This document shows positions 24,155-59,774 of a DNA stretch of 64,000 nucleotides, one piece after another. The notes below the pieces were generated by a model. The model saw only the letters and a program-made list of their open reading frames with translations. It searched no databases and was not told the origin of the DNA. Position 1 is the stretch's first letter. Each line of letters opens with the position of its first letter. Source of the DNA: an uncultured Lentimicrobiaceae bacterium (lineage in GTDB: Bacteria > Bacteroidota > Bacteroidia > Bacteroidales > WCHB1-69). The DNA is taken from positions 37,957-101,956 of the forward strand of contig CAZZHH010000003.1 of the NCBI GenBank assembly GCA_964653595.1, written 5' to 3'. Both the position numbers and the translations under genes were made by a program.

Positions 24155-24604
24155 TCATTTTTTGTACGCCCGAGAATAATCCACATGTTCGTCGACGAAT
24201 TTCCCCAAAGCAACCTTGCGCACTGCAAACTTATCAGCACTACTCCAGTCACCACACCACTTGCGAAGAACATTATCCAAGTGTTCTTGACACGTAACCA
24301 TAATGTTTGCAAGGTGTCCAGCTTGAAGTTTTTCGTCCTTGCAGTACGTTCTCTTGCTGTGACACAAAATGTTATACAGTTTGTTAATCGCCGTTTGAAC
24401 AAGCGATGAATATTGTTTATTTTCAAGCTGTGCGTGAATGTTCATAACATTCCCGTAGTTCCAAGAAACTATCGCCTGTTCCTCCGTTTGTTCCATTCGT
24501 GTTGTAGCATGGCAAGTTCCGCATTCGCAATGATAAAATGTCTTACCGTCTTGTTTTATGCGTATTACATGTCCACGTCCTTCACAGGTTACACATGGCT
24601 CCAT
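24155..24604 (-). CDS. Lar-like zinc-ribbon (restriction alleviation-type) N-domain protein (Fam-O)
   Basis: MEPCVTCEGRGH...YHCECGTCHATTRMEQTEEQAIVSWNYG matches the Lar-family pattern C..C....C..C....eeAi..WN; paralog of 29893..30378. Confidence 0.7.
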   Translation of the reverse strand: MEPCVTCEGRGHVIRIKQDGKTFYHCECGTCHATTRMEQTEEQAIVSWNYGNVMNIHAQLENKQYSSLVQTAINKLYNILCHSKRTYCKDEKLQAGHLANIMVTCQEHLDNVLRKWCGDWSSADKFAVRKVALGKFVDEHVDYSRAYKK

Positions 24605-24630
24605 AATTATTACCTTTCTTTGTCTGGTAG

Positions 24631-24667
24631 GGTATTTTACATTTGTGTTGGCGCTTTATTCACAAAT
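24631..24667 (-). promoter_or_regulatory. promoter module for 24155..24604
   Basis: GTGAATAAA-N13-TGTAAAATAC; back to back with the + promoter at 24697. Confidence 0.6.
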
Positions 24668-24696
24668 GGTTAATTTTATTTTTTGTGCAAGAGAAA

Positions 24697-24726
24697 ATGA
24701 ATAAATTCCCTGCTCGTATGTAATGC
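24697..24726 (+). promoter_or_regulatory. plus-strand promoter module for 24755..25213
   Basis: ATGAATAAA-N13-TGTAATG in + orientation, then AAAGGAAAAA SD. Confidence 0.6.
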
Positions 24727-24754
24727 GAACAAAACATTACAAAGGAAAAATGTT

Positions 24755-25213
24755 ATGAACGAAGAACAAGTGCAATGGGCACTTAAAGCTCTGCAAGGCA
24801 ACATCCGTATGGAGATGATGACAATCTTGGCTGAATGTGTCAAGAATGTACCACAAGAAGAATTGATTGAAAATCCAGCCAAAATGATTTATACGGTGGA
24901 TTCCAACGGCGAAGTAAATTATATCTTTGATAACGACTTTGACGAAACATTAAGCGAAGAGCAGGTTGCCGAAATGGAAATTGCGCTTCAGGGAAACGCC
25001 AAAGAAGAAGCTATGACGATTATTAATCATTTCGACGAAAACGTAGACGCAAATTTGCGCACAGGGAATCCTATTCATCTTGTTTACTTGGCAAGTACTA
25101 ACGGATTCTGTACTGGATATTGCACTGACGAAATTGAAAACATGTCGGATAACCAAAAAGAACAATTGAAGAAAATGCTTTTTAGACTCGGCGCAATTGA
25201 CAGATTGGCCTAA
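24755..25213 (+). CDS. Fam-P protein (two tandem ~75-aa domains), plus-strand gene
   Basis: Own + oriented promoter motif and AAAGGAAAAA SD; internal duplication EEQV..AL.GN...E.MTI; strong terminator downstream. Confidence 0.75.
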   Translation: MNEEQVQWALKALQGNIRMEMMTILAECVKNVPQEELIENPAKMIYTVDSNGEVNYIFDNDFDETLSEEQVAEMEIALQGNAKEEAMTIINHFDENVDANLRTGNPIHLVYLASTNGFCTGYCTDEIENMSDNQKEQLKKMLFRLGAIDRLA

Positions 25214-25234
25214 TTCCAACGTTGAATAAGTAAA

Positions 25235-25280
25235 CGAAATCCCCTCTGTATGGAGAATGATACAGAGGGGATTTCGTTTT
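25235..25280. terminator. bidirectional terminator between convergent 24755..25213 and 25293..25892
   Basis: Perfect 16-bp stem CGAAATCCCCTCTGTA/TACAGAGGGGATTTCG; T-run on + side. Confidence 0.8.
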
Positions 25281-25292
25281 GAAGGGAAACTT

Positions 25293-25892
25293 TTATTTGT
25301 GTTTCTCATATTTCTTGTATTTCACGTATTCGTCCCAAAGTCTGGTAAGTATAAAAACGATATACGCTTCTGTCGTTTGACTAAATTCTCTATGTGGAAC
25401 ATTATTGCCATACATTTTTCGTAATTCGTCACGGGCATATCCACCCTCTTCACCATTACAACAACTATCACCCCCAACGATAATCGTATCAAAAACTACC
25501 GAACGATAACCTTGCTTTTGCATTGTCTTTGCCCAATCGTAAGCATCATAAACTTCAGGGTATAAGATGTCAGTGCCTGCAATGGCTTCAATAAGCGGTT
25601 TATATTTTTCGTATCCATATTGGCGTTGGATATCATATTGGAACATTCTTTCGGCAACACCTAATGCTTCGACTGTACCTAAAAAATAAAGACGCTTTTT
25701 CGCATTCTTGATTGCCAAAAATTCTCTCATAGCCACACCGAAATAATCATGACCGTCATAACTTTCGTAACCGACGGGAGGGAGCCTGTATTTATATCCC
25801 ATAAGCCCCATAGCGAACCGTGTGGTTCTCATTTCGCTTTCTTCGTTCTCTTTAATAAATTGAACGACTTCTGGACTAAGTGTGTTACTCAT
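25293..25892 (-). CDS. hypothetical protein with Fam-B-like N-terminus
   Basis: LSPEVVQFIKENEESEMRTTRFAMGLMG resembles Fam-B N-termini; remainder differs. Confidence 0.8.
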   Translation of the reverse strand: MSNTLSPEVVQFIKENEESEMRTTRFAMGLMGYKYRLPPVGYESYDGHDYFGVAMREFLAIKNAKKRLYFLGTVEALGVAERMFQYDIQRQYGYEKYKPLIEAIAGTDILYPEVYDAYDWAKTMQKQGYRSVVFDTIIVGGDSCCNGEEGGYARDELRKMYGNNVPHREFSQTTEAYIVFILTRLWDEYVKYKKYEKHK

Positions 25893-25945
25893 TGTCTCTA
25901 CCTTTCTTTGTGTTTGTAATGTTGTAATACAATCGGGAATACTTT

Positions 25946-26326
25946 TTATTCATTTCTTTTTACTAAACAGAATATCCAATCGTCAGCGGATTCACAGTCT
26001 ACACAAATGTGTTTACCTGTATAGACTATGCTTTTACTAAAACTATACTGTCCACAAAATTCACCTTCGCGGATTTTCAATTTCTTTTTACCATAATCGT
26101 TCAATCCGTTACAAACCTTATGGAACGCACCTGTTTCTTTTTTATAAGCTAAAACAAAACACATGCCTTTATCAATTTGACCATTGTAGAATATATCTTC
26201 ACGTTTAACTTTGGTCTTATTCGGCAATTCAGCAAGTCCGTAGAATGAATAATAAACTTGTAAAGACGTTAAAGTTTGTAATACTTCAATTACATTGGAT
26301 TTTCTTTTTACATCAATTTCGTTCAT
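25946..26326 (-). CDS. hypothetical protein (126 aa)
   Basis: Own promoter and AAGAAAGGAAAG SD; stop lies inside the next promoter motif. Confidence 0.75.
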   Translation of the reverse strand: MNEIDVKRKSNVIEVLQTLTSLQVYYSFYGLAELPNKTKVKREDIFYNGQIDKGMCFVLAYKKETGAFHKVCNGLNDYGKKKLKIREGEFCGQYSFSKSIVYTGKHICVDCESADDWIFCLVKRNE

Positions 26327-26384
26327 TGTTCTTTCCTTTCTTGTTATTTACTACAATCGGGGTTACTTTTTATTCATCAATTTT

Positions 26385-26423
26385 CACTAAAAATAATGGC
26401 GTCTGGTGCGAAAACCAAACGCC
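26385..26423 (-). terminator. intrinsic terminator after the mosaic gene
   Basis: 10-bp stem (one G-U, so minus-strand specific) then ATTATTTTT. Confidence 0.7.
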
Positions 26424-26430
26424 ACATTTA

Positions 26431-26798
26431 CTAATTCAACCGTGCCACAATGAATTCATGACGTTCTGTTCCGTCTTCCACATATCCCTTTGTACCTCCG
26501 TAAAGCTGATTGACTTCACGGTAAATTACTCTTTCGTTGAAATACTTTTCAGCCATAAACTGACCAATCTCTTTCGGGCTGACAATCTTGTTATAGCCCT
26601 TGGCTTTCAACCACTGACAGATTTCTTTGATATTGGTTGTAATTTTCGTTCCGTTCCATCTTCTTCACGTAAAAACAAACCGACTTGACGTTCGTCGAAA
26701 TTACTCATCAAGTCATACTTTTTAATAAAGACCTCGGTGGGATGAAGTGGGTATTCCTGCTGAAACACCTTGACTTTGAATGTAACAATCTGACTCAT
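26431..26798 (-). pseudogene. mosaic/frame-broken gene (N-terminus of the 12013..12567 family fused to unrelated sequence)
   Basis: Track ORF 26607..26798 stops at 26607. A different frame continues (..EICQWLKAKGYNKIVSPKEIGQFMAEKY..GTERHEFIVARLN) to 26431 without its own start. A 36-bp repeat lies at the junction. Confidence 0.4.
26647..26682. repeat. 36-bp perfect direct repeat, copy 1
   Basis: CGTTCCGTTCCATCTTCTTCACGTAAAAACAAACCG; copy 2 at 26905-26940. Confidence 0.8.
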
Positions 26799-26846
26799 TT
26801 GTTTTTCCCTTTCATTTTGTACTATACAATCAACACTGGATTTTAT

Positions 26847-27032
26847 TCACAATTTGTTATTTTTAATGTTACACATTTCAAGGATTTCTTCCAGTTCTAA
26901 TTTCCGTTCCGTTCCATCTTCTTCACGTAAAAACAAACCGCCTTGACATTTTGGTGCTTCAGTGACTTCTGCACCATGCTTTTTTATTACTTCATAGGTT
27001 CTTTCATAATTAATTACTTTTTTCGAATCCAT
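26847..27032 (-). CDS. hypothetical protein (61 aa)
   Basis: AGAGG SD; C-terminal GGLFLREEDGTERKL block repeated at 26.65 kb. Confidence 0.55.
   Translation of the reverse strand: MDSKKVINYERTYEVIKKHGAEVTEAPKCQGGLFLREEDGTERKLELEEILEMCNIKNNKL
26905..26940. repeat. 36-bp perfect direct repeat, copy 2
   Basis: Identical to 26647-26682; encodes GLFLREEDGTER in both ORFs. Confidence 0.8.
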
Positions 27033-27062
27033 TATTACAACCTCTTCATTGTCAAACTCATA

Positions 27063-27425
27063 TTAGGCACGTCCAATATTGTTTATTACGTCAAAAAACT
27101 TTTTCAACGCGCACTTTTCATCTGCATCCTGATTAACAATATAGAACAAGCCAAAACACGCACCGTGTTCAAATACCCATTCGTCTTGCACGTTTTTTGT
27201 TTTATTCACGCCTTTTTTATTAAATTTCTTCCTCGATACACACAATTGATTCTTTTCATTCAAATAAGTGTTGTATAATTCATTGGCAAAACCCAATTGA
27301 TAAAACACACAAACATTTAAGTTGTTTTTTAATAATTCAATTGCTTGTTTAGTGGAACACTGCATCAGCGGTTTGACACCAAAACTTCCGCACACTGCTT
27401 CAAATATTGAGTCGTGGTCACTCAT
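27063..27425 (-). CDS. hypothetical protein (120 aa)
   Basis: GAAAGGAC SD; overlaps the end of 27418..27678. Confidence 0.7.
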   Translation of the reverse strand: MSDHDSIFEAVCGSFGVKPLMQCSTKQAIELLKNNLNVCVFYQLGFANELYNTYLNEKNQLCVSRKKFNKKGVNKTKNVQDEWVFEHGACFGLFYIVNQDADEKCALKKFFDVINNIGRA

Positions 27426-27678
27426 CTGATTGTCCTTTCAGTTCTTTAATAGATAATTCTTTGATGAACTTGCCGTCTTTCACAATAACGATCTTTTCAG
27501 TTCGCTCCATCAGGTCTTTATGCCAGCAGATTCCTGAATTCTTTTGAAAATATGCTTTGAATTGTTTTTCTACTGTTTCAAGTTTCGCATAGCTGTAATC
27601 GACCCAATCTTGTACTTTGTTGCTTCCGATATACTGCACGGAAAACGTTACCTTTTTAGGCTTCGCACGGAATGGCAT
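27418..27678 (-). CDS. hypothetical protein (86 aa)
   Basis: Own promoter; GAAAGGAAAC SD. Confidence 0.7.
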   Translation of the reverse strand: MPFRAKPKKVTFSVQYIGSNKVQDWVDYSYAKLETVEKQFKAYFQKNSGICWHKDLMERTEKIVIVKDGKFIKELSIKELKGQSDE

Positions 27679-27749
27679 TGTTCTGTTTCCTTTCTGTTTC
27701 CTTTCTGTATCTAATACAATTGAACCGAATCTTTATTCACAATTTGTTA

Positions 27750-28076
27750 TTATCCTGCGGAAACAAGTCCGATTTCGTAGCAAAATCCCAAGAATTCCCT
27801 GTCGAGGTCAAATTCGTCAACATCATAACACGTATGCTCTGCACGCCATTCAATCAATTTTGCACGCTTGCCGTCTGTAATGTTTTTATCCCAACAATAA
27901 CGGTCACGAATGGTAATACTCCCGCCATCATCAGTAAAGAATTGCTCCAACTGTCCTACCGTTTTAATTTCGTTGTTAAAAACACATGAGGCAGGTAAGC
28001 TTTTATTGGCATAACTGTCAAAGTATTTACACATCCATTCGTGTGCTGTTAATTTTCTGTTCATTTTTATTTCCAT
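27750..28076 (-). CDS. hypothetical protein (~104-108 aa)
   Basis: Own promoter; alternative start ATG 28062-28064 has the better GGAAA spacing. Confidence 0.7.
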   Translation of the reverse strand: MEIKMNRKLTAHEWMCKYFDSYANKSLPASCVFNNEIKTVGQLEQFFTDDGGSITIRDRYCWDKNITDGKRAKLIEWRAEHTCYDVDEFDLDREFLGFCYEIGLVSAG

Positions 28077-28134
28077 TTTATTTTGTAATACCTAATACCA
28101 TTGACGATAAATTTTATTCACAAATTTTGAATAA

Positions 28135-28767
28135 CTACACAACTTTTCTTTCGTCACGGGCAAAACGGAAGTATGGATGGACAAAATAATCCTTGACGCT
28201 CTCTGGTAACCTGTCTGCATTTTTAATGACAAATTCTTCAAAAACATCGACATTGCTTTGCGATTCCATAAAGTCACAATAATTATTGACTTTCAGAAAC
28301 AGACTTCCAATCATCATATTGACTTTGCGTTCAGCACTTGGGCATTCAAGCAAACAACGTTCAAGGGCTTTTTTTATGAATTTCTTATCTTTAGCAAACA
28401 CGATATTCTTAAACGCCTGTGTAATTGCTTCAGTTCGCTTTGTGTGCGAATAGATTTTCCCAATTGCACTGTTGAGGTATTGCGGTTTCAAAACGTACCC
28501 ATGAATATTGAACATCACGTTTTCAAAAGAGTTTGTGTTATTTGGCGAATTGGTTTTGTAATAGTAAGCCAAGTTCTTATATTTATATCTCAAGAAGTTC
28601 TTTGATTCATTTTCATATCTGTTTGACAGGTGTCTGTAATACACATACGCCAACACCAAACATCTAAGTTTTTCATCAAGTTCTTCTTTGCTGATTGACT
28701 GAACGACATTCCATTTCTCTACATATCCCTCATGAATATGGAATAGCGGTTCCACAGTAGAATTCAT
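28135..28767 (-). CDS. Fam-E paralog (unknown function)
   Basis: HEGYVEKWNVVQSI..YVYYRHLSNRYENESK aligns with 21474..22103; AGGAAAGG SD. Confidence 0.8.
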   Translation of the reverse strand: MNSTVEPLFHIHEGYVEKWNVVQSISKEELDEKLRCLVLAYVYYRHLSNRYENESKNFLRYKYKNLAYYYKTNSPNNTNSFENVMFNIHGYVLKPQYLNSAIGKIYSHTKRTEAITQAFKNIVFAKDKKFIKKALERCLLECPSAERKVNMMIGSLFLKVNNYCDFMESQSNVDVFEEFVIKNADRLPESVKDYFVHPYFRFARDERKVV

Positions 28768-28773
28768 TTTTCA

Positions 28774-28872
28774 TTATCCTTTCCTAATAGCCCACAAGGC
28801 AGTTAATACCAAAGCCCAGTAGATGATATATAAAACATTATAAACGCCGTCAAAAGCGCCTTTATTCTTCAT
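28774..28872 (-). CDS. small membrane peptide (32 aa), partner of Fam-E gene
   Basis: AAAGGAC SD + ATG 28870-28872, own promoter; MKNKGAFDGVYNVLYIIYWALVLTALWAIRKG, paralog of 22100..22210. Confidence 0.5.
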   Translation of the reverse strand: MKNKGAFDGVYNVLYIIYWALVLTALWAIRKG

Positions 28873-28945
28873 TTACAGCTGTCCTTTATCTTTATTCGTT
28901 TGTTATGATAAATACCGTTGAGCGTGAGATTTATTCACGGTTTAT

Positions 28946-28978
28946 AAAAAAAATCGCAACGAATATACCGTTGCGATT
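28946..28978 (-). terminator. intrinsic terminator after 29066..29305
   Basis: AATCGCAAC-loop-GTTGCGATT followed by T8. Confidence 0.8.
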
Positions 28979-29065
28979 ATGAGCTTAATAAGAATAATAT
29001 AACATTGCGCTAAGTTGGTGTTTCCGCTTGACCTTCAATCATTTTCATAGTGTGCGTTTTAGTAG

Positions 29066-29305
29066 TCATTTTGAATCTCCTTCGTTCTTGGGCGGTGCGC
29101 CTTGCCACCACATTAATTTTCCGCCGCTATATCGTTTTTCAAAGTTAGCTTTGGTTCCAGTGTAACAGATAACTTCAATATCGCATTTGCTACATTTTAG
29201 TGAATGGAATGTGCAGTAGTGAATTCCGTTTTTTCTTTCGTGAATCAAACCAACTGTTTTGTGTTCATATACCATTTCACCGTTACATTTCTTACATGTA
29301 CACAT
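29066..29305 (-). CDS. small zinc-ribbon protein
   Basis: CTCKKCNG ... CSKCD cysteine pairs; GAGGAGGAAG SD; TAATG coupling to 29305..29856. Confidence 0.65.
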   Translation of the reverse strand: MCTCKKCNGEMVYEHKTVGLIHERKNGIHYCTFHSLKCSKCDIEVICYTGTKANFEKRYSGGKLMWWQGAPPKNEGDSK

Positions 29306-29856
29306 TATTCTTCCTCCTCAATTTCTTGTCCATAGCAACTGTCAAGGAATTCTTGATAGTTGCCAACATCAAGAAAATCTTCCATGCCGTTTGAGTCATG
29401 TTCAATGTTATATTGAGTATCGCAATCTTCACAGGTTGTTTCCAAGTATTCCACACCGCCAACAATACGCTCAAAGGGGTTTTGGTTGGTGCTTCCGTAT
29501 TGACTTGCGATTTCATACCACCGCCGATATTGCTCAACGGGAATTGTAATGCAAAAGGCTTCTTTGCCATTGTCTTTGACCATCTGCACGAACCTTGGTG
29601 TTAAAACTTCGTGCGACCCTGTAATATCATTAAAACTCCGAACAAAGTGTCCGATACAAACTCCTGCAAGACAGCGGTAAAACTCGTTATATTTGAAATG
29701 ACTTGTAAGATATCGTAAGTGTTTTTCTTCCTTATCTTTGTCACTGTTTCTCATTTCTACAATTGCTTCCACTTCATTCTGCATGAAGATTTCTGCTTCC
29801 TGACGGCTTTCGCAGTTAAATATATTGGGAAAACCGATTGTTACTTCTGTATTCAT
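29305..29856 (-). CDS. Fam-A paralog (unknown function)
   Basis: VTIGFPNIFNCESRQEAE...ITGSHEVLTPRFVQM...FCITIPVEQYRRWYEIA. Confidence 0.8.
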   Translation of the reverse strand: MNTEVTIGFPNIFNCESRQEAEIFMQNEVEAIVEMRNSDKDKEEKHLRYLTSHFKYNEFYRCLAGVCIGHFVRSFNDITGSHEVLTPRFVQMVKDNGKEAFCITIPVEQYRRWYEIASQYGSTNQNPFERIVGGVEYLETTCEDCDTQYNIEHDSNGMEDFLDVGNYQEFLDSCYGQEIEEEE

Positions 29857-29892
29857 GATTCTTTATCTACCTTTCATTTTAGATACTGTATA

Positions 29893-30378
29893 TTACATTT
29901 GAGCTTGTGCTTTATTCACAATTTCTGAATCTTTTACATGATTAGCGAAGAATTTATCATTAGCCTTACGTGAGATGATAAGAAAATCATCTAACGACCA
30001 ACCCGTACACCACTTTGAAAAGACGTGATTGAATTGATGTTCACAAAGTGCGCTAATGAAAAGCATATCAACGGTTTTCACGTAATTACCGAATCCAGAC
30101 GCATTCTTTTGTTTAACTATTACGTCATATAGTTTATCAATAGTTTTCTGTACGTGCCATGAGTAAATCCCGTTTTTGATCTGTTCATGGACTTTCATAA
30201 GCGATACTCCGAAGTTCCAAACGTTTTCGGCTTGTTGTTCTGTGTATTCACGACTTGTGATGGCATGACAATGCATACATTCTCCATGGTACATTTTCGT
30301 TTTATCACCATGAGTATTTGTTTCGATAGTCATCACAATGATACCTTCATGATTACATAAGTTACAGCTGTTTAGCAT
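29893..30378 (-). CDS. Lar-like zinc-ribbon N-domain protein (Fam-O)
   Basis: CNLCNHEG...YHGECMHCHAITSREYTEQQAENVWNFG; C-terminal half aligns with 24155..24604; its last codons contain the next promoter. Confidence 0.7.
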   Translation of the reverse strand: MLNSCNLCNHEGIIVMTIETNTHGDKTKMYHGECMHCHAITSREYTEQQAENVWNFGVSLMKVHEQIKNGIYSWHVQKTIDKLYDVIVKQKNASGFGNYVKTVDMLFISALCEHQFNHVFSKWCTGWSLDDFLIISRKANDKFFANHVKDSEIVNKAQAQM

Positions 30379-53851: not shown

Positions 53852-53871
53852 CCCAGTCATTTCTGACTGGG
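53852..53871 (-). terminator. terminator after 53881..54204
   Basis: CCCAGTCA-GAAA-TGACTGGG then TAATTTTTATT. Confidence 0.7.
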
Positions 53872-53880
53872 CGTTTTTAT

Positions 53881-54204
53881 TTATGCCGCTTGCGTCATTC
53901 TTGCATACGTAACTTTGAATTCTTCCAAACGGTCATTCATATCTTTATCGACAACACATTCAGTATACACCTCAATGAACCTATTCCATGCCACACGTTG
54001 GGAAAGTGCGGGGTCAATTTGCGGATATTGAACACGCAGGCAAAGGTACTCATATTCAAAACGCCGCATACATTTTTCAAAAACCAACTTCGCCAACCAC
54101 GAATTCATATATTGGCGGCGCATTTTCTTCATTTGCCGTACGGCAATATCAAACATACGATTCGAAAGGTTGAATTGAGCATACATTAAATTGTTTTCGC
54201 ACAT
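53881..54204 (-). CDS. hypothetical basic protein (~107 aa)
   Basis: Trimmed to ATG 54202-54204 behind GAGGT; the start choice is uncertain (ATG 54217-54219 also possible). Confidence 0.6.
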   Translation of the reverse strand: MCENNLMYAQFNLSNRMFDIAVRQMKKMRRQYMNSWLAKLVFEKCMRRFEYEYLCLRVQYPQIDPALSQRVAWNRFIEVYTECVVDKDMNDRLEEFKVTYARMTQAA

Positions 54205-54326
54205 GGTACATGACCTCATAAGGTAAAATGTGAACTGAATCGGTTTTCTGTTCGTTCGCAATTATAATACAAACGAGATGAAAGTTTATTCATAAAAGAT
54301 GAATTTTTTTTGCAGGTAGTCATTTT

Positions 54327-54344
54327 TTCTTGTCCACTGTACCC
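54327..54344 (-). repeat. 17-mer copy, opposite orientation
   Basis: + strand CTGTACCCCACGTAAAAT then TAAGTGAATAAAAA. Confidence 0.7.
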
Positions 54345-54370
54345 CACGTAAAATTAAGTGAATAAAAAAA

Positions 54371-54394
54371 ACTGGAGTCATTTCTGACTCCAGT
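54371..54394 (-). terminator. terminator after 54402..55073
   Basis: ACTGGAGTCA-GAAA-TGACTCCAGT then T8. Confidence 0.8.
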
Positions 54395-54401
54395 CCGTTG
54401 T

Positions 54402-55073
54402 TTAGTTACTTTTTACTTTCACCTCGTTTCTTGTAACTATTTGCATTTCGTCTTTGTATGTTCTACTAACTCTTGTGATGTGGTCAAAAATGCCGCCCTC
54501 GTAAAAGCCGCCGAATATACTATCGAGCTTAAACTTAGTTTTGATGTTACATAATATGATAGTGTCAAAACCTGTGTTATAAAACGCACGCACGCCTATG
54601 GATTTAACACAGTAAAGCGTTTTACATTTTTCTCCACCAAACCTGTGGTGTCCGAAATGGTCTAAGCTACAACAATCATAAAAGGCAAAATCACTTATTG
54701 TTTCAACTAAAGGGCAATCAATTGATGTAACACAACCACAACCCGCGAATGCGCCTGTGCCAATTACTCTTACTCTATCATACCCAACAACTTTACACAG
54801 ACTTGCACAACCCGCAAATGCGTAATTACCAATGGTTTCAATATTGCTTAAACGAACCGTGCGCACGTCGGAACCTGCAAATGCGCCATCTGCAATGTGT
54901 TTCACAGCGTATTTTTTGCCCTCATACTCGAATTCACAGGGAATTTCAATCTCGGCGGTGTTGTAATAATCGGACTTAATAACAGGCATTGAAAGAACTG
55001 TTGCTTCCATGCGATATGGATTCAGTTGAAACGATCCAGCAAATTCTGTTTTGACTGTGATATAGATAGACAT
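54402..55073 (-). CDS. BspA-type leucine-rich-repeat protein
   Basis: Trimmed to ATG 55071-55073 (AGGGG SD); HIADGAFAGSDVRTVRLSNIETIGNYAFAGCASL. Confidence 0.75.
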   Translation of the reverse strand: MSIYITVKTEFAGSFQLNPYRMEATVLSMPVIKSDYYNTAEIEIPCEFEYEGKKYAVKHIADGAFAGSDVRTVRLSNIETIGNYAFAGCASLCKVVGYDRVRVIGTGAFAGCGCVTSIDCPLVETISDFAFYDCCSLDHFGHHRFGGEKCKTLYCVKSIGVRAFYNTGFDTIILCNIKTKFKLDSIFGGFYEGGIFDHITRVSRTYKDEMQIVTRNEVKVKSN

Positions 55074-55198
55074 GGTATTACCCCTATAAGAATTTTTTAA
55101 CTTCACTACATAACTACAATCGAACAGGTACTTTATTCATAAAAGATGAATTTTTTTGCTTTATATGCGAATTGTTAATTCAAGAAAACCAGTTGTAT

Positions 55199-55215
55199 TT
55201 TTACGTGGGGTACAG
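55199..55215 (+). repeat. 17-mer copy
   Basis: TTTTACGTGGGGTACAG. Confidence 0.7.
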
Positions 55216-55237
55216 GGCAAAAAAATCGCCAAAAAAA

Positions 55238-55261
55238 ACTGGAGTCATTTCTGACTCCAGT
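55238..55261 (-). terminator. terminator after 55269..55574
   Basis: ACTGGAGTCA-GAAA-TGACTCCAGT then T8. Confidence 0.8.
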
Positions 55262-55268
55262 CTGTTTC

Positions 55269-55574
55269 TTAGTAGTTTGATTTGATTTTCCATTTGTTGC
55301 CTTCAGGAATTGTTACGTTTGAAGGCATGGCGATAGTATAAAACGTTCCATCGTCGCTTCTTGTGACTTCAGCATTATGATCGGTCAATCTATCATAAGC
55401 GACAAAAATAAAACAATTGTCGTTCATATCGTCCATCTCACTATCGTCAAAATTGTCCGATTGAAAAATGGAATTGCACAATGATTTTATTTCTTCACTT
55501 GCACAGCGCCAACCTTGCGAATCGCAACATGTTGCAATTCTTTTTCCGTCTTTAAAGTGAAACACTTCATTCAT
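55269..55574 (-). CDS. hypothetical protein (101 aa)
   Basis: GAGGT SD; own promoter and terminator. Confidence 0.7.
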   Translation of the reverse strand: MNEVFHFKDGKRIATCCDSQGWRCASEEIKSLCNSIFQSDNFDDSEMDDMNDNCFIFVAYDRLTDHNAEVTRSDDGTFYTIAMPSNVTIPEGNKWKIKSNY

Positions 55575-55687
55575 AATACAAACCTCATAGAGTTTATTTT
55601 GTTTCTTGTTTCGTAATCATAATACAATTAAGACGAAAGCTTATTCATAAATTTTTTAATATTTTTTATTCCAGAAAACCCGTTGCA

Positions 55688-55704
55688 TTTTACGTGGGGT
55701 ACAG
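55688..55704 (+). repeat. 17-mer copy
   Basis: TTTTACGTGGGGTACAG; starts a 46-nt block identical to 56358-56403. Confidence 0.7.
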
Positions 55705-55733
55705 GATATTCTATTTTGCGCAATATGCGAAAA

Positions 55734-55751
55734 GGGGAATTTGCATTCCCC
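55734..55751 (-). terminator. terminator after 55762..56259
   Basis: GGGGAAT-GCAA-ATTCCCC then TTTTCGCAT. Confidence 0.7.
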
Positions 55752-55761
55752 CGTTTGTTTA

Positions 55762-56259
55762 TTATCTCATAGAGTCCACAAGTTTCATTACGGCGGTATC
55801 GTACGACAATAAAGTTCTGTGTTCTTGAGGATCGAATAGGATTTTACAACCGTTAACAAATGTTTCAAGTTGCGAACAATCTTCTTCATTCCATCCGAAA
55901 TAATTGTCATTTTCCAAATCGTTCTTCTGTTCTTGCGTCATATGCGAAAATACTTCATCCGTCACTTCAATTAAGCGAACATGCATTCCAGCAAACGAAA
56001 CGGCTTCAGCAATTTCACTCGGTTCAAACTCATATTCGTCATTTACGGAAGAATGATAGGGTAAATGTTCAATCCCGCTACCACTTGCATAGTGGGGATT
56101 TTCTACCGTTAAATTATCAGACACTTCAGAATATTCTTCAGCTACCCAATTTAAAACGGAGTCAATAGTAATTTTTTCATAGCTTCCATCTTGCCACATC
56201 TTATTATAGGCAAGCAACATTCCGCCCGTGGAATCTTTCAAGTGAATCATTAAAGCCAT
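55762..56259 (-). CDS. Fam-M paralog (acidic, unknown function)
   Basis: Trimmed to ATG 56257-56259; MALMIHLKDSTGGMLLAYNK. Confidence 0.75.
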   Translation of the reverse strand: MALMIHLKDSTGGMLLAYNKMWQDGSYEKITIDSVLNWVAEEYSEVSDNLTVENPHYASGSGIEHLPYHSSVNDEYEFEPSEIAEAVSFAGMHVRLIEVTDEVFSHMTQEQKNDLENDNYFGWNEEDCSQLETFVNGCKILFDPQEHRTLLSYDTAVMKLVDSMR

Positions 56260-56357
56260 TTTTCTAATCCCTTTCATCTTTTGAAGTTACTTATATCTAC
56301 AATCAAGTGGAAACTTTATTCACAAATTGTTATTTTTATTCTATGAGTTTTATGGTA

Positions 56358-56374
56358 TTTTACGTGGGGTACAG
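56358..56374 (+). repeat. 17-mer copy
   Basis: TTTTACGTGGGGTACAG. Confidence 0.7.
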
Positions 56375-56402
56375 GATATTCTATTTTGCGCAATATGCGA
56401 AA

Positions 56403-56426
56403 AGGGGATTCATTTCTGAATCCCCT
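56403..56426 (-). terminator. terminator after 56431..57135
   Basis: AGGGGATTCA-GAAA-TGAATCCCCT then TTTCGCAT. Confidence 0.75.
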
Positions 56427-56430
56427 ATTT

Positions 56431-57135
56431 TTAAATCCAAGCTGGTTGTGTTTTTGTATCTGGCAAACTGAATAACCAATCAATAACATCTTGAGGAACC
56501 TGTGCAAACTTTTTCTCTACCCCGAATATATGCCCACAAACTGGACAAGGTTTTCTGCATAATCCATCTGGGTGGTCATCTTCACGAAGATACAAAAGTT
56601 TGCTTTTTTTCATAAATGGAATATCCTTTTTATAGAATTCACTAATAGATTCATCAAGTTCTTCCTTATCGCTTTCACGGATTAACCGCAATAACGGTAT
56701 AATATGCGCTTTTTCTGTAAGTTGGAAATAAGTATGATTCTTATCTATTTTATTAATTTTCTTTATAGCGTCAAAAATTTCAGACGCTTCTCTTGTAATA
56801 ACAAATTGATACACATCTACTTCTTTCCAACACTGCTCAGGCCAACCCAACTCTTTTTGGTGTTCGCAATATGTACGCCTGTGATTTAAATTCCATTCAT
56901 TCCAAATTTGAATTAATCTTTCAACTTTCTCTTGATTAAATCCATCATTAAAACATTTAACGTTATTAAGTAATGCATTTTGAATTTGGTCACGATGACC
57001 TGTACAGCGCCCAAAAATTCTCGGCCCCTCAACTCCAGTAATTGTTAATGCGCCTTGTTCGTCCAATTCAATTTTAACATAAACTTGCATTTCTGTATTA
57101 CTGCACTTTTCCAATGGATTGATAATTTTAATCAT
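56431..57135 (-). CDS. hypothetical protein (234 aa) with C-terminal CxxC
   Basis: Trimmed to ATG 57133-57135; CRKPCPVCGH near the C-terminus; no family recognised. Confidence 0.75.
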   Translation of the reverse strand: MIKIINPLEKCSNTEMQVYVKIELDEQGALTITGVEGPRIFGRCTGHRDQIQNALLNNVKCFNDGFNQEKVERLIQIWNEWNLNHRRTYCEHQKELGWPEQCWKEVDVYQFVITREASEIFDAIKKINKIDKNHTYFQLTEKAHIIPLLRLIRESDKEELDESISEFYKKDIPFMKKSKLLYLREDDHPDGLCRKPCPVCGHIFGVEKKFAQVPQDVIDWLFSLPDTKTQPAWI

Positions 57136-57221
57136 TACTGTACTCTCTTTCATTTTTAAGGTTACTTATTATTACAACCGAACAGAAATTTTATTCACAA
57201 ATTACTATTATATGCGAATAA

Positions 57222-57247
57222 GGGGGAATTCATTTCTGAATCCCCCC
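57222..57247 (-). terminator. terminator after 57256..57477
   Basis: GGGGGATTCA-GAAA-TGAATTCCCCC (one bulge). Confidence 0.7.
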
Positions 57248-57255
57248 ATTATGAA

Positions 57256-57477
57256 TTACTTGTGATTGATTTCATCAAGAATACGTGTCACTACATCCAA
57301 AGCATCACGCAATTGGCTTTTAGTCATTGATTTAGATAAATCCACAACACCGCCGCCATTAAGGTGCAGTTCAAGTTTATTTCCGTTTATGGTTTTCGTT
57401 ACTTCAAATTTGCCATGCGGCAATTCAGGCAAACGCCTCAAGCAAATTTCAATTTCTTTGTTTGTTGCTCTGTTCAT
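57256..57477 (-). CDS. Fam-L paralog (73 aa, unknown function)
   Basis: Aligns with 49491..49709; own promoter and terminator. Confidence 0.7.
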   Translation of the reverse strand: MNRATNKEIEICLRRLPELPHGKFEVTKTINGNKLELHLNGGGVVDLSKSMTKSQLRDALDVVTRILDEINHK

Positions 57478-57562
57478 GATAGGATTCCTTTCATCCTTTG
57501 AAGTTACTTATATCTACAATCGAGTAGAAACTTTATTCACAAATTGTTATTTTTTTATGGTA

Positions 57563-57579
57563 TTTTACGTGGGGTACAA
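57563..57579 (+). repeat. 17-mer copy
   Basis: TTTTACGTGGGGTACAA. Confidence 0.65.
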
Positions 57580-57655
57580 AATGCATTACAAAAAAAGGGG
57601 GATTCATTTCTGTTCATAATCCCTACCACTGTATAATGTCGGGAGTTTCCCGTGT

Positions 57656-57690
57656 TGTAATACAACTAAAGGGGGTATTTTTATCCACAA
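57656..57690 (-). promoter_or_regulatory. orphan promoter module (variant GTGGATAAA)
   Basis: Followed by a CGGG-loop-CCCG leader hairpin, an ATG with only 20 codons, and a degenerate terminator. Confidence 0.45.
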
Positions 57691-57722
57691 ATTGTTATTT
57701 TTATTTGGGAATTGTTCCGCCC

Positions 57723-57757
57723 CTCCCCATGTAAAATATTTCAACCCCACGCAAAAT
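57723..57757 (-). repeat. double half-site version, opposite orientation
   Basis: + strand CTCCCCATGTAAAATATTTCAACCCCACGCAAAAT; inverted relative to 58809-58842. Confidence 0.55.
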
Positions 57758-57780
57758 GAGGGATTTTTCAGAACAAAAAA

Positions 57781-57810
57781 ACAGGCGGGGAATTTTCATT
57801 CCCCGCCTGT
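57781..57810 (-). terminator. terminator after 57815..58615
   Basis: 13-bp stem ACAGGCGGGGAAT/ATTCCCCGCCTGT, GAAA loop, T7 tail. Confidence 0.8.
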
Positions 57811-57814
57811 GGTA

Positions 57815-58615
57815 TTAGCAACATTCCTCCAACATGTATAAAACATCTTTAGCGCCGAGAAGCCGTTTTTTCTTTTTATACACCTTAACTGTGATTGTCC
57901 CCTCGTTGTTGTCTTGAATTTTTACCCTCGTCACCAACTCACCACTGAATGCCTGACTGTGAATTTCTGGTTTTTCGCCATTATACTTAAATGTCAAATC
58001 GTCAAATCTTGTGTTACAAAATGCCGATTTCCCAATATGCTTCACGTTGAAAAACACGTGTTCCCAATCAAACAAAACAGAAGTATTCTCATAGACCTTG
58101 TTCAAACGTTCGCAATTATAAAAAGCATAATCCCCAATATCGACAACGCCATGAATGCAACATTGAGAAATATTACTTGACTCAAACGCAAATTTTCCAA
58201 TTCGTGTAACATGCGAGAAACAACTGTAAAAGCTAATCAGTTCTCTCGTGTATGCAAAAGCATGATCGCCAACATATTTCAAATTCGATCCGAATAACAC
58301 TCTTTTGAACATTGTGCCTGAAAATGCATAATCAGCTATAGCAGTAACTTTGATTTTTTCGCCGTCATACAGAACATCATTAGCTAATGATAATTCACCC
58401 TCAAAATTCCGAGCTTCAGGCATAACTCGATTGACTATCATCCCAAGGCACTTGGTTTCTTGATGGTCAAAATAATACTTTGCATATTCAATGCCATTAC
58501 AAATAACCGTTTTTTGGTCTACCTGATAGCACAAACCAAATAAAGAGTTTGAAATTCCGCAATTTCCAATATTACTATAAACAAACTCATTTGTATTCTT
58601 TGTTTCCGTAGTCAT
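57815..58615 (-). CDS. BspA-type leucine-rich-repeat protein
   Basis: AGGAG SD; AIADYAFSGTMFKRVLFGSNLKYVGDHAFAYTRELISF; unusually long structured leader. Confidence 0.8.
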   Translation of the reverse strand: MTTETKNTNEFVYSNIGNCGISNSLFGLCYQVDQKTVICNGIEYAKYYFDHQETKCLGMIVNRVMPEARNFEGELSLANDVLYDGEKIKVTAIADYAFSGTMFKRVLFGSNLKYVGDHAFAYTRELISFYSCFSHVTRIGKFAFESSNISQCCIHGVVDIGDYAFYNCERLNKVYENTSVLFDWEHVFFNVKHIGKSAFCNTRFDDLTFKYNGEKPEIHSQAFSGELVTRVKIQDNNEGTITVKVYKKKKRLLGAKDVLYMLEECC

Positions 58616-58808
58616 GATATGACTCTCCTATATATTATATGGTTTTTACACACAAGGAACGCCGCCCGTGGCGTTCCGATTCATTGAGATGTCAAAGAGC
58701 GGTGTTCCTTGTTGCGTAATATATCTACAGTTGAGTAGGCACTTTATTCATGAAAGATGAATTTTTTGTTATATGCAGTCTTTTTTTTATTCTATGAGTT
58801 TTGTGGAA

Positions 58809-58842
58809 TTTTGCGTGGGGGAGAGATATTTTACATGGGGAG
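58809..58842 (+). repeat. double half-site version
   Basis: TTTTGCGTGGGGGAGAGATATTTTACATGGGGAG. Confidence 0.55.
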
Positions 58843-58874
58843 GAAAATGTGGGATTCTTCAGAACAAAAAAAAT

Positions 58875-58900
58875 AGGGGGATTCATTTCTGAATCCCCCT
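58875..58900 (-). terminator. terminator after 58908..59774
   Basis: AGGGGGATTCA-GAAA-TGAATCCCCCT then T8. Confidence 0.8.
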
Positions 58901-58907
58901 ATGTTCA

Positions 58908-59774
58908 TTATGCTGGAATGGCTTCCTGTTCGGTTTTTCCCTCCAGTGCGTTCACAAGATACGTGACATTCTTTTCAACACGTTTAATTAGCCTACTAAC
59001 GGCAATAAGTGCCTGTTTAGGGGATTTATCGTTCCAACTGGTTAAATAGCTTAAAACGCCGTTTAAATCGCAATGGGATTCATAACCCAAGTAGGACATT
59101 AAAACCGCCGCCCCGAATTCTGCAACCGTCTCACACATTTGACGGCATTCCATATTATTATGATAATCCTCATTCTGTTTTTTGTAGTTGACGTAATCGG
59201 CGGCATGAATCAGTTCATGAGCGAAAACGGATTCATCTTTTGACTTCAAAGTGATTTTATTGCTCAATGCGTAATACCCGCCCAATGCACTTCCTGAATC
59301 TTCGGCAATCACTTTAATGTCAAGTTGTTTTGCAATTTCATACAAGGGGGCTTTATTCCCGCCCTCATAAAATGTTTCAATCATTTTTTCGGATTCAAGG
59401 GGTTCTCCGTCTGTTTGGGAAACGTCGAAACGGGGCGACAATGTAAAGCCTATGCATTTATTTTTATCGTCTTCGTTTTCATCTTTTTCTTTGATAATAA
59501 GGGGCTTGAAAATGAAGACGGCTTTTTCGCCGCCCTTGACAAACCGTTTAACTTTTTTCCATTCATTGTAAGTTCTTGCGTCCGTGGCGCCTTGTGCCAT
59601 TAAAAGCAGTTGATTAAAAACGCTTAACTTCGTTTGAGACAATCTTTTGACATTGAAAACTTCATGACGGACGTTAGAAACGAGGGTACCGTTTTCGCAC
59701 ATTGTTTTCATCATGTTAAAAAGTTTTGCGGCGCAATCTTGCATTCTGAATTCTTTTTCTTCCATTGTAGCCAT
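58908..59774 (-). CDS. ArdC-like anti-restriction protein (second copy)
   Basis: Trimmed to ATG 59772-59774 (AGGAG SD); NQLLLMAQGATDARTYNEWKKVKRFVKGGEKAVFIFKPL, VFAHELIHAADY, ETVAEFGAAVLMSYLG. Confidence 0.8.
   Translation of the reverse strand: MATMEEKEFRMQDCAAKLFNMMKTMCENGTLVSNVRHEVFNVKRLSQTKLSVFNQLLLMAQGATDARTYNEWKKVKRFVKGGEKAVFIFKPLIIKEKDENEDDKNKCIGFTLSPRFDVSQTDGEPLESEKMIETFYEGGNKAPLYEIAKQLDIKVIAEDSGSALGGYYALSNKITLKSKDESVFAHELIHAADYVNYKKQNEDYHNNMECRQMCETVAEFGAAVLMSYLGYESHCDLNGVLSYLTSWNDKSPKQALIAVSRLIKRVEKNVTYLVNALEGKTEQEAIPA

Follow-up and report, generated by a model that had tools for sequence, protein, structure and literature searches.

A shuffling gene-cassette array in a genome above 340 kb, probably that of a huge phage

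Layout and gene content

The window, the whole stretch of 64,000 nucleotides analysed here, belongs to a contig of 103,198 bp and carries, from ~11.5 to ~63.3 kb (at least 52 kb), an array of ~90-95 small, mostly unique genes with a median ORF length of 183 aa. The interval 24155-59774 delimited in a preliminary description lies within this array and forms its middle, or core, but the array itself is far longer. In that interval we counted ~54 genes, 51 on the minus and 3 on the plus strand, ~42 of them without annotation, fewer than the more than 60 small unannotated genes described before.

11500..63320, minus strand: cassette array, ~90 co-oriented short genes, 74 copies of a promoter-like module
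63320..64000: non-coding purine-rich short-repeat region directly upstream of the first cassette
24755..25213, plus strand: inverted cassette, preceded at 57 nt by the module in plus orientation
~38100-38561, plus strand: third plus-strand ORF

By eye the inverted cassette at 24755..25213 resembles the plus-strand cassette at 37635-37913, and blastp at E<=0.01 gave no link to minus-strand genes. The minus-strand ORFs 24676, 24950, 37521, 37983 and 38246 were rejected as spurious, inverted plus-strand cassettes taking their place. Small membrane proteins cluster at 3.3-10.4 kb, and the chimeric small ORFs 26607 and 26847 have segments in common with 12013. The recognisable products are as follows.

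44708..45673, minus strand: ArdC-like protein 1, 321 aa, ArdC-N-type domain and gluzincin domain, phrog_7245
58908..59774, minus strand: ArdC-like protein 2, 288 aa, phrog_7245 (E 2e-12)
24155..24604, minus strand: Lar-type zinc-ribbon N-domain (residues 2-51) and helical C-domain, PF14354 (E 2.8e-4, 21.5 bits)
29893..30378, minus strand: second Lar-type zinc-ribbon protein, PF14354 (E 6.3e-5, 23.6 bits)
40682..41446, minus strand: RNA ligase, nucleotidyltransferase domain, motif I EKVDG
23540..24097, minus strand: small radical-SAM / 4Fe-4S protein, CPRNCDGC, phrog_31524 (1e-24), Fer4_12 (35.8 bits)
36276..37475, minus strand: largest BspA-type LRR_5 protein, 14 tandem 69-nt repeats
1649-2524, 2555-3376, 18974-19537, 38616-39329, 42614-43195, 51321-51947, 54402-55073, 57815-58615: LRR_5 paralogs
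41553..42218, minus strand: Cys-rich hexapeptide-repeat protein, paralog of 6241-6891
6241-6891: hexapeptide gene, Pfam-positive (Hexapep E 5.7e-11)
311-1231: ankyrin gene

Both ArdC-like genes named in the preliminary description are present, with 59% identity and an invariant AHELIHA motif. Either protein alone falls below the Pfam cut-off for ArdcN, so that membership needs a profile built with homologues, and a single-sequence search with a window ArdC-like protein gave no PDB match. The profile of both genes and their homologues, however, matched the R388 ArdC structures 6I89 and 6SNA at E 2e-5, covering the ssDNA-binding domain and the metalloprotease. The five key residues of R388 ArdC (H201, E202, H205, E229 and Y255; PMC7213743) all have conserved equivalents, which in protein 1 are H217, E218, H221, E246 and Y274, and the catalytic residues are intact in both copies; for ArdC, the claimed anti-restriction content holds. 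The ArdC of R388/pSa (IncW) has the same two-domain layout, an ArdC-N-type ssDNA-binding region followed by a gluzincin domain, and is by sequence a very distant relative; unlike it, the window copies are promoter cassettes within a gene array. By homology, the ArdC-type proteins would bind ssDNA and shield an entering or replicating genome from restriction.

The RNA ligase of the earlier account is confirmed by PF09414 at 63.6 bits. Its two Lar-family proteins are indeed paralogs (E 2e-23), and the four-Cys ribbon at their N-terminus has Lar_restr_allev as its best match in Pfam, but both fall short of the PF14354 gathering score of 28.6. The radical SAM enzyme and the LRR, ankyrin and hexapeptide scaffolds exist as well, although the first, the ankyrin gene and the Pfam-positive hexapeptide gene lie outside the interval to which they had been assigned. 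Acidic proteins are common (pI < 5 in 38 of 101 by composition), which is not a specific property.

The diversified paralog families proved real. At least 18 mutually unrelated families were found: LRR_5 with ten members, Fam-B with eight (seven in the earlier count), the helical 'LTEKG' family with six, four families with three and about eleven with two.

32494..33030, minus strand: Fam-B reference member
19610-20158, 20225-20788, 20849-21403, 22971-23486, 29305-29856, 43303-43869, 44071-44601: other Fam-B members
39395..39973, minus strand: 'LTEKG' reference member
17576-18178, 18287-18922, 25293-25892, 33087-33638, 40062-40613: other 'LTEKG' members

The largest unannotated families are lineage-restricted. 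Fam-B has 15 matches among 1.84 billion representatives, and its structural model is confident (pLDDT 90) with no match to its fold in the PDB. Profile searches of the unannotated families against Pfam, PHROGs, NCBIfam, PADLOC and the PDB assigned no function, ordinary roles included, and tblastn against 50,697 phages assigned nothing either. Sixteen representative unannotated proteins had no match in the phage collection, and a ten-protein query (six from these 16) against the plasmid collection listed matches only to RNA ligase and ArdC-like segments.

The repeated module and its accompanying elements

Almost every gene between ~11.5 and 63.2 kb is preceded, ~60 nt before its ATG, by the module AATTTGTGAATAAA-N13-TTGTA. 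Searching for TGAATAAA-N13-TGTA with at most one mismatch gave 77 matches against 1.64 expected, 74 of the 77 on the gene strand, and a repeat search independently found families of 33, 29 and 22 copies. The consensus, aaaAaaAtTnAnAATTTgTGAATAAA-N11-ATTGTAnTA, extends over ~45 nt and mostly lies 50-65 nt upstream of the ATG; plus-strand ORFs likewise have it in plus orientation. Between module and ORF lies a leader of 25-30 nt with an SD-like GAAAGG. The individual promoters claimed earlier are borne out as a promoter-like motif. The module does not fit the sigma-70 consensus, a scan for which returned 78 sites against 78.6 expected; nor, compared by eye, does it fit the Bacteroidetes -33/-7 consensus. 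Judged by position only, the module would be a promoter and the expression that it drives would be early; in part it could be a processing or regulator site.

44676..44699, minus strand: example of the conserved GC hairpin terminator GGGGATTCAGAAATGAATCCCC, one repeat family
41520-41545, 45931-45952, 51291-51312, 56403-56426, 58873-58902: further hairpin terminator copies
38593..60444, both orientations, sometimes paired: second intergenic box CCCCACGTAAAAT, 23 copies against 0.05 expected

In the right half of the array the conserved hairpin often precedes the module, and hairpin terminators number 41 where 12.3 were expected. The CCCCACGTAAAAT box lies ~40 or ~58 nt upstream of promoter cores.

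Cassette turnover between strains and known parallels

Related strains (L277, L001/L003, L291 and L284) are 87-99% identical in common blocks and differ by whole cassettes, which in three of them are inserted, deleted, permuted or replaced. The homology blocks end within the module in 23 of 29 cases, the module making up 15.6% of the array (p = 5e-14). Paralogs are frequently in tandem, and of all cassettes those with LRR genes vary most between strains. In 26 of 28 orthologue comparisons, those with a computable ratio, dN/dS was 0.00-0.55, mostly 0.07-0.3; the orthologues are under purifying selection, a sign of real genes that is otherwise not specific, with no gene-wide positive selection. 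Diversification proceeds through gain, loss and swapping of cassettes, and a module-mediated cassette-shuffling array is directly shown.

A close parallel in layout is offered by the promoter-early stem-loop (PeSL) regulatory cassettes that T4-type phages carry in their hyperplastic regions; in these cassettes an upstream stop codon in AT-rich DNA is followed by promoter, stem-loop, SD and ATG, and they number ~52 per whole genome in phi1 and RB49 (Arbiol et al. 2010, PMC2839356; Comeau et al. 2014, PMC4122927). There too, ORFans are immediately preceded by a repeated composite motif, which is concentrated in plastic regions; where close relatives differ by an insertion, a deletion or a replacement, the ends fall in this motif. 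The array differs in its promoter-like module, which is not sigma-70-like, in its far greater density (~74 modules in 52 kb) and in the additional CCCCACGTAAAAT box, and it belongs to a genome of more than 340 kb with no detectable relationship to T4. The terminator half of a PeSL-type cassette is moreover not universal in the array, a hairpin being found within 105 nt for only 24 of 74 modules, or one third.

Integron arrays are likewise long, one-directional series of short, variable, mostly unannotated genes with whole-cassette differences between strains. Here, however, neither an integrase nor attC sites are present, every cassette comes with a promoter-like module of its own, and exchange appears to be homologous at the repeated module and not site-specific. 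Comparable, too, are phage anti-restriction regions that act early or enter first (gene 0.3, Ocr, in T7; the pre-early region in T5; the host-takeover module in SPO1) and the anti-defence islands of plasmid leading regions, where small, individually promoted, co-oriented and mostly unannotated genes, anti-restriction genes included, are clustered. The likeness is one of gene content and layout. The array differs in its scale of ~95 genes, its extensive paralog expansion and a conserved promoter-like module that doubles as a recombination site.

Nature of the genome and role of the cargo

The reading that we consider probable is that of a hyperplastic accessory-gene array, recombined through its module. 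Its genome, uncultivated and larger than 340 kb, is most likely that of a huge phage from the gut. In this array each gene would be an autonomous cassette of promoter-like module, leader and ORF, to which the right half of the array adds the hairpin and the CCCCACGTAAAAT box. Because ~75 repeats lie in one orientation, the module may act as portable homology; recombination within it would duplicate, delete, permute, invert or replace whole cassettes with their expression signals undisturbed, and from this would come both the tandem paralogs and the gene content that varies from strain to strain. The cargo would consist of cytoplasmic proteins from a pool specific to this lineage, which are under purifying selection and would serve host interaction or counter-defence.

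It is possible, if doubtful, that the array is mainly an anti-defence arsenal, with Fam-B, LTEKG, LRR and other families as immune inhibitors diversified by an arms race. The two ArdC homologues and the Lar-type ribbons would suit such a role, as would the RNA ligase, a candidate for the repair of nuclease-cut tRNA, the binder scaffolds, the many acidic proteins, strain-to-strain differences in cassette presence, the lack of an ordinary role for any family and lineage restriction, which is typical of known anti-defence genes. Yet the unannotated families match no characterised anti-defence protein (by sequence and, for Fam-B, by fold), dN/dS is well below 1, the Lar matches are below threshold and the RNA ligase has no Pnkp partner in the window. 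We found no positive counter-defence evidence for the unannotated families, and the only link from the cargo to a tested counter-defence activity is through ArdC. Since profile databases and the PDB assign no function to these families, the searches neither contradict nor establish an anti-defence role beyond ArdC; a shuffling array is compatible with such a role and, to the same degree, with functions in host range, superinfection exclusion or host takeover.

Alternatively, the cassettes might form a mostly neutral or selfish 'ORFanage' of mixed dispensable functions (host takeover, superinfection exclusion), mobile via the repeated module and spreading perhaps in the manner of PeSL mini-circles. 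Breakpoints at the module, tandem duplications, permutations and inversions, the chimeric ORFs, the small-membrane-protein cluster and the precedent of T4-type hyperplastic regions all fit this. We regard it as unlikely, as nearly all orthologue pairs are under purifying selection, the Fam-B model is well folded and both ArdC copies have been kept with intact catalytic residues.

The genome to which the preferred array reading refers is probably a huge gut phage; this identity is circumstantial, because the ~100 kb of sequence covered show no gene for a capsid, terminase, portal or polymerase. IMG/VR contains no relative. The ankyrin gene is carried by a scaffold of 322,919 bp that also encodes tRNAs. 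PHROG and phage tblastn matches were obtained for the radical-SAM protein (~30% identical to homologues in crAss-like phages, LoVEphage and a 735-kb phage), the RNA ligase, LRR proteins, ArdC and a 240-aa protein. A conjugative megaplasmid or ICE, with the array as an oversized leading region that would be expressed first to blunt recipient defences, is a quite improbable alternative. Uniform gene orientation is in keeping with it, as is ArdC-N, a domain usually met in conjugative elements and seldom in polyvalent proteins of phage type (PMC5512222), and the ArdC-like genes have their nearest outside relatives on plasmids of Enterococcus and Lactococcus and in an integrase-bearing island. Against this stand the above searches of the phage and plasmid collections and the PHROG and phage matches of several genes; relaxase, T4SS, ssb, psiB and ardA have no match in the window or its flanks, tRNAs adjoin the array, and the array, at more than 50 kb, is far above described leading regions. 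ArdC is, besides, reported from ~100 huge phage genomes, likewise above 200 kb, one of them with two copies (bioRxiv 10.1101/2025.02.27.640493).

That the proteins with LRR_5 or ankyrin repeats serve as effectors against a eukaryotic host or cell surfaces (BspA-type adhesins, 'Ankyphage'), and the array a symbiosis or virulence module, is very improbable: ten BspA-type LRR genes and one ankyrin gene, the variability of the former among strains and a gut origin judged from sample names and relatives would agree with it, but by eye these proteins have no signal peptide, lipobox or anchor, and they account for just ~11 of ~97 genes.

In the relative L277, proteins with the 'LTEKG' N-terminal pattern, recognised by eye, are located upstream of the array, and positions 5140-5925 are 76% identical to the non-coding region at 63320..64000.

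Promoter-like module of the cassette array

From about 11.5 to 63.2 kb, nearly all genes have one common sequence ahead of them, with the consensus aaaAaaAtTnAnAATTTgTGAATAAA-N11-ATTGTAnTA. Scanning with TGAATAAA-N13-TGTA at no more than one mismatch gave 77 occurrences (74 in the orientation of the genes, minus), against 1.64 in dinucleotide-preserving shuffles, and an independent repeat search recovered the module as families of 33, 29 and 22 copies. The conserved core mostly lies 50-65 nt before the ATG and is followed by an SD-like GAAAGG(T). Shorter core-to-ATG distances are artefacts in which the start was miscalled at the TTG within TTGTA or the GTG within GTGAAT; in the genes concerned, the true starts are ATGs 30-60 nt downstream.

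Examples of genes with a start miscalled inside the module
11575-11985
17576-18220
44071-44658
48928-49416
51321-51986
54402-55106
58908-59780

The three module copies on the plus strand lie 57-65 nt upstream of plus-strand ORFs, next to which another ORF follows on the same strand.

Plus-strand ORFs
24755-25213, plus strand, behind a plus-oriented module
37635-37913, plus strand, behind a plus-oriented module
about 38100-38561, plus strand, the next ORF

These plus-strand ORFs represent inverted cassettes, and the products of the first two appear alike by eye. Minus-strand ORFs called at 24676, 24950, 37521, 37983 and 38246, which overlap the inverted cassettes, were rejected as spurious.

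With regard to the type of promoter, a sigma-70 consensus scan showed no enrichment (78 matches, 78.6 expected), and by eye the Bacteroidetes -33/-7 consensus (TTTG ... TAnnTTTG) did not fit the module. Its two conserved blocks, TGAATA and TGTA, are separated by 15 nt, a non-canonical geometry (TGAATA-N15-TGTA). The sigma-W pattern is TGAAAC-N16-CGTA, and by this analogy the module may be ECF-sigma-like, which we take as only a lead. The preliminary description had credited the small genes with strong individual promoters; this is confirmed as regards a conserved motif with the right placement and a specific orientation, its promoter function, strength and early timing being presumed.

Two further elements accompany the modules. 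Terminator-like hairpins are enriched (41 versus 12.3 expected), many having GGGGATTCAGAAATGAATCCCC in common, and one lies within 105 nt upstream in 24 of the 74 modules, mainly at 41-62 kb. Another box, CCCCACGTAAAAT, has 23 copies (0.05 expected), all confined to the right half at 38.6-60.4 kb (38593-60444). They precede cores by about 40 or 58 nt, in both orientations and with some pairs 20 nt apart, and may serve a regulator as operator or label a temporal class of their own.

Examples of the CCCCACGTAAAAT box
45869-45881
45891-45903
56357-56369
59911-59923

In public collections, scanning IMG/VR with TTGTGAATAAA-N12-ATTGTA gave single chance matches only, and the same pattern in metagenome and genome collections gave chance single matches and no relatives among the matches listed.

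Cassette turnover at the module

Alignment of related contigs to the window revealed common blocks that are 87-99% identical, between which whole cassettes differ. The 15.9-kb scaffold L277 lacks 56431-57153 and 57256-57477, has the LRR genes 57815-58615 and 54402-55106 either exchanged or missing, and carries a different LRR cassette in place of 59980-60922. In the related contig L001 an identical ArdC gene is preceded by different cassettes. A third relative, L291, exchanges the order of the cassettes starting at 34410 and 32494, lacks 33745, 33087, 31776 and 27750, and carries an extra 181/182-aa gene pair in place of the single Fam-B gene 29305-29856. The ends of the blocks are regular, the upstream ones falling 0-20 nt before a core and the downstream ones about 57-68 nt past the next core, that is, at the next ATG. 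With all strains pooled, 23 of 29 block ends fell in the zone from 80 nt before to 35 nt after the start of a core, which makes up 15.6% of the array's length (p = 5e-14, binomial); in an earlier, stricter test, 9 of 12 ends lay within +/-35 nt (p = 4e-7).

The hyperplastic regions of T4-type phages are described as behaving in this way, with promoter/stem-loop (PeSL) motifs ahead of ORFans driving modular shuffling (PMC2839356, PMC4122927). In both cases the ORFans of a plastic region are immediately preceded by a repeated promoter-like motif, and it is in this motif that close relatives have their indel and replacement breakpoints. The PeSL promoter, however, fits host sigma-70, for which the module has no enrichment; the array packs about 74 modules into 52 kb compared with about 52 per genome; and whereas the stem-loop is part of each PeSL motif, the hairpins of the array, enriched as they are, lie near only a third of the modules. 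An integron was rejected, as no integrase was matched in the window by Pfam and the cassettes bring their own promoter module, while integron cassettes are promoterless, attC-bounded and accompanied by an integrase.

Two small genes, 26607-26798 and 26847-27032 (63 and 61 aa), have 17 aa in common at 88% identity and, in different segments, match the N-terminus of the 196-aa protein of 12013-12603 (43 aa at 65% identity); cassette recombination seems to have left them chimeric or truncated. Separately, the 399-aa LRR_5 gene includes, at 36317-37286, about 14 tandem 69-nt (23-aa) repeats of 75-85% identity. Close to these repeats the 97-kb contig begins, and the 323-kb scaffold of the relatives does so a few kb away, at about 32 kb of the window; assemblies thus probably break in this stretch.

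Recognisable genes and lineage-specific cargo

The preliminary description had read the interval 24155-59774 as an anti-defence arsenal, naming four anti-restriction genes.

44708-45673, ArdC-like
58908-59774, ArdC-like
24155-24604, Lar-type zinc ribbon
29893-30378, Lar-type zinc ribbon

The two ArdC-like products are 59% identical to each other. Singly, they scored 17.1 and 19.6 bits against ArdcN (PF08401; gathering score 22.6), each also stayed under the Pfam cut-off for the zincin MPTase-PolyVal domain, and a PDB search with a profile of this single pair found nothing. The ssDNA-binding N-domain was recognised through the homologue alignment and not in the window proteins alone: ArdcN was matched by 10 of the 11 members (best 8.6e-9), and five database homologues carry a precomputed PF08401 match. 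Both proteins also matched phrog_7245 ('anti-restriction protein') over nearly their full length, and the 11-sequence profile found the R388 ArdC structures 6I89 and 6SNA (E 2e-5) across both domains, its alignment to 6I89 starting at residue 74. In R388 ArdC, H201, E202, H205, E229 and Y255 provide the metal ligands, the catalytic base and the substrate-stabilising tyrosine (PMC7213743). HMMER aligned to these five residues H217, E218, H221, E246 and Y274, which are invariant among the homologues, so that the C-terminal part has the gluzincin arrangement of HExxH, a glutamate on the next helix and a conserved tyrosine. We therefore accept the two genes as distant ArdC-family members as judged from sequence, and for ArdC the predicted anti-restriction content of the array is real.

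The Lar-type proteins are less clear. Together with a third one from L277, they have Lar_restr_allev as top Pfam match over positions 2-57 of the 58-position model, at 21.5 (24155-24604), 23.6 (29893-30378) and 24.4 bits (L277), all below the gathering threshold of 28.6 (PF14354). Read from the sequences, a four-Cys ribbon is followed by (A)xxxWN (CVTC...CECGTC...AIVSWNYG and CNLC...CMHC...AENVWNFG). We thus regard all three as Lar-type ribbons by pattern rather than certified members, for which an anti-restriction function is plausible. To our knowledge, the only Lar that has been characterised is that of the Rac prophage.

The RNA ligase also held up, with 63.6 bits against PF09414 (Rnl2-like nucleotidyltransferase; threshold 27), motif I EKVDG containing the KxDG lysine, and a phrog_548 match; no Pnkp-type companion, as in T4 Rnl1/Pnkp-type tRNA repair, was found among the window proteins by Pfam or PHROGs. 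The radical-SAM protein was correctly named (CPRNCDGC, Fer4_12 35.8 bits, phrog_31524), though it lies just outside the interval, as do the ankyrin gene and the Pfam-positive hexapeptide gene. Instead of the more than 60 small unknown genes claimed, we count about 54 genes in 24155-59780, of which about 42 have no annotation whatsoever.

Beyond these products, Pfam, PHROGs, NCBIfam and PADLOC provided almost no annotation. NCBIfam gave 0 matches for the window proteins, and so did PADLOC for the window, indicating that the array is not a defence island. Sixteen representative unknown proteins had no tblastn match in the phage collection. When ten proteins (six of the sixteen, ArdC-like 1, the RNA ligase, the radical-SAM protein and a 240-aa protein) were queried against the plasmid collection, only RNA ligase and ArdC-like segments were among the matches listed.

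BLASTP with HMM iteration grouped the products into BspA-type LRR_5 proteins (10), Fam-B (8), a helical family with an 'LTEKG...F.LG' N-terminus (6), four families of three and about eleven pairs. Comparing 18 families by hhalign revealed no hidden superfamily (maximum probability 19%, versus 99.7% for the positive control). Paralogs are often adjacent, as in 19610/20225/20849, 12848/13449/14005, 17576/18287, 39395/40062 and 22207/22508. A word-indexed search of 5.8 billion proteins found no Fam-B outside the array lineage, and searching 1.84 billion representatives exhaustively with an HMM yielded 15 Fam-B proteins; the LTEKG family is likewise confined to this lineage. The AF2 model of Fam-B, built on eight paralogs, is confident (pLDDT 90, pTM 0.83); it had no structural match in the PDB (best E 0.39, TM 0.22) and in BFVD only marginal ones, to uncharacterised phage proteins (E 1.7e-3). 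The model of the 31776/33745/61111 family is poor (pLDDT 50.5), and PDB profile searches for this family, Fam-B and LTEKG gave nothing below E 0.02. Orthologue pairs between strains have dN/dS values of 0.00-0.55, mostly 0.07-0.3, indicating that the ORFans are real genes under purifying selection and free of gene-wide positive selection. The LRR and ankyrin proteins, read by eye, have no signal peptides. A pI below 5, in 38 of 101 products, is suggestive at best as a functional hint.

Upstream of the array, past window position 64000, L277 1-4960 holds eight tightly packed genes with one module among them. By eye, five have an LTEKG-type N-terminus, two form a 149/135-aa pair, and one encodes the 85-aa ribbon whose best Pfam match is Lar; paralog expansion thus goes beyond the promoter-cassette part.

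The genome and the reading of the array

The window is about 85% coding at a GC content of about 0.35, and its minus strand carries nearly all long ORFs. Neither tRNAs nor Rfam matches (0) were found in the 64 kb, and megablast of 20 kb against 50,697 phage records detected no relative. Proteins identical to those of the window are encoded on short metagenome contigs of several samples and on three long ones.

Long contigs encoding identical proteins
103,198 bp, the window's own contig
97,448 bp, ENA contig, ERZ15185583 NODE_140
322,919 bp, ENA scaffold, ERZ28614953 scaffold_10, with the ankyrin gene of window 311-1231

The 322,919-bp scaffold contains the equivalent of about 1-32 kb followed by about 290 kb more, and L277, a separate scaffold from the same sample, that of 52-64 kb and 5 kb beyond; because of this combined span, the genome exceeds 340 kb. 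Adjoining the array in the relative are tRNA-Arg, tRNA-Phe, a 569-aa LRR_5 protein and, on the other strand, an 813-aa acidic repeat protein.

On indirect evidence, the element is probably a huge phage genome; the roughly 100 kb covered showed no hallmark gene of virion or replication. PHROG matches occur among the window proteins; the RNA ligase has phage-type homologues, as have the radical-SAM protein, in crAss-like phages, LoVEphage and a 735-kb phage, and the 240-aa protein, in Enterocloster phages; and ArdC has been reported from about 100 huge phage genomes, one of which has two copies (bioRxiv 10.1101/2025.02.27.640493). A related-locus search in IMG/VR with ArdC-like protein 1 and a 457-aa protein found no relatives, and the distant Fam-B homologues P0020, P0024 and P0026 sit on contigs below 2 kb only.

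The reading with the best support is that autonomous cassettes make up a hyperplastic accessory array, that the genome around it is huge and probably that of a phage, and that the repeated promoter-like module doubles as the homologous-recombination substrate. What the cargo does is a separate matter. For the families other than the ArdC- and Lar-type genes an anti-defence role is suggested by context only; our searches assigned them no ordinary role, and those for positive anti-defence evidence came back equally empty. The cargo may also be a mixed or partly selfish 'ORFanage'. The original observation is confirmed in part, and its interpretation is supported in part. Less likely is a conjugative megaplasmid with the array as its oversized leading region, since neither Pfam nor PHROGs detected the relaxase, oriT and T4SS that usually neighbour such regions, or ssb, psiB and ardA, in the window and its flanks (about 100 kb of the >340-kb genome).

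Returning to the phage array, a more far-reaching proposal, which we consider rather doubtful as a whole, is an array of cassettes kept without an integrase in a huge phage. Its promoter, specific to the phage and perhaps recognised by a sigma factor or RNA polymerase that the phage encodes, would also be the recombination site, through which about 95 lineage-specific genes would be freely duplicated, swapped and reordered. Several of the expanded families, namely Fam-B (its fold absent from the PDB), LTEKG and the BspA-type LRR proteins of the cytoplasm, would form new inhibitor classes against bacterial immunity. If the shuffling reading is right, the array would be the densest known case of promoter-mediated modular shuffling, extend the PeSL principle past T4-type phages and past sigma-70 promoters, and offer a concrete mechanism whereby huge phages build and renew very large ORFan sets. 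Its main value lies in the cassette architecture and the well-defined lineage-specific candidate set: about 95 presumably individually expressed candidates for counter-defence and host-takeover screens, including two ArdC variants, a confidently folded family without PDB analogue and ten cytoplasmic LRR binders, with the module as a sequence tag for finding more cassettes of this lineage in metagenomes.

Some minor features surround the array. In the 323-kb relative, tRNA-Arg(TCT) and tRNA-Phe(GAA) (L279 15836-15912 and 19203-19277) lie about 5-9 kb past the window's left end, and the 364-aa ORF at L279 15940-17034, which has no Pfam match, resembles by eye a TnpB/OrfB-type transposase remnant. 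The equivalent of the region just beyond window position 1 (L270 13477-15933, minus), on the opposite strand, encodes an extremely acidic 818-aa protein of about 8 copies of a ~75-aa domain (YYTG..L(T/S)..Q...FF.S.E....F......EDAA...I.DFCE.N..F...DF), two copies of which seem by eye to occur in the 147-aa window protein 52752-53195. Directly upstream of the first cassette, the non-coding purine-rich stretch 63320-64000, with the short repeats GGAAAGAATTC (x3.5) and GGGGAAGGATAGGGGAAAG, is kept at about 76% in L277 and could be an origin, terminus or regulatory region. Outside the module array, 3381-10354 encodes about eight tightly packed, small predicted membrane proteins without database matches.

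Examples of small predicted membrane proteins
3381-3638
5259-5783
8879-9349
9368-9616
9650-9985
10115-10354
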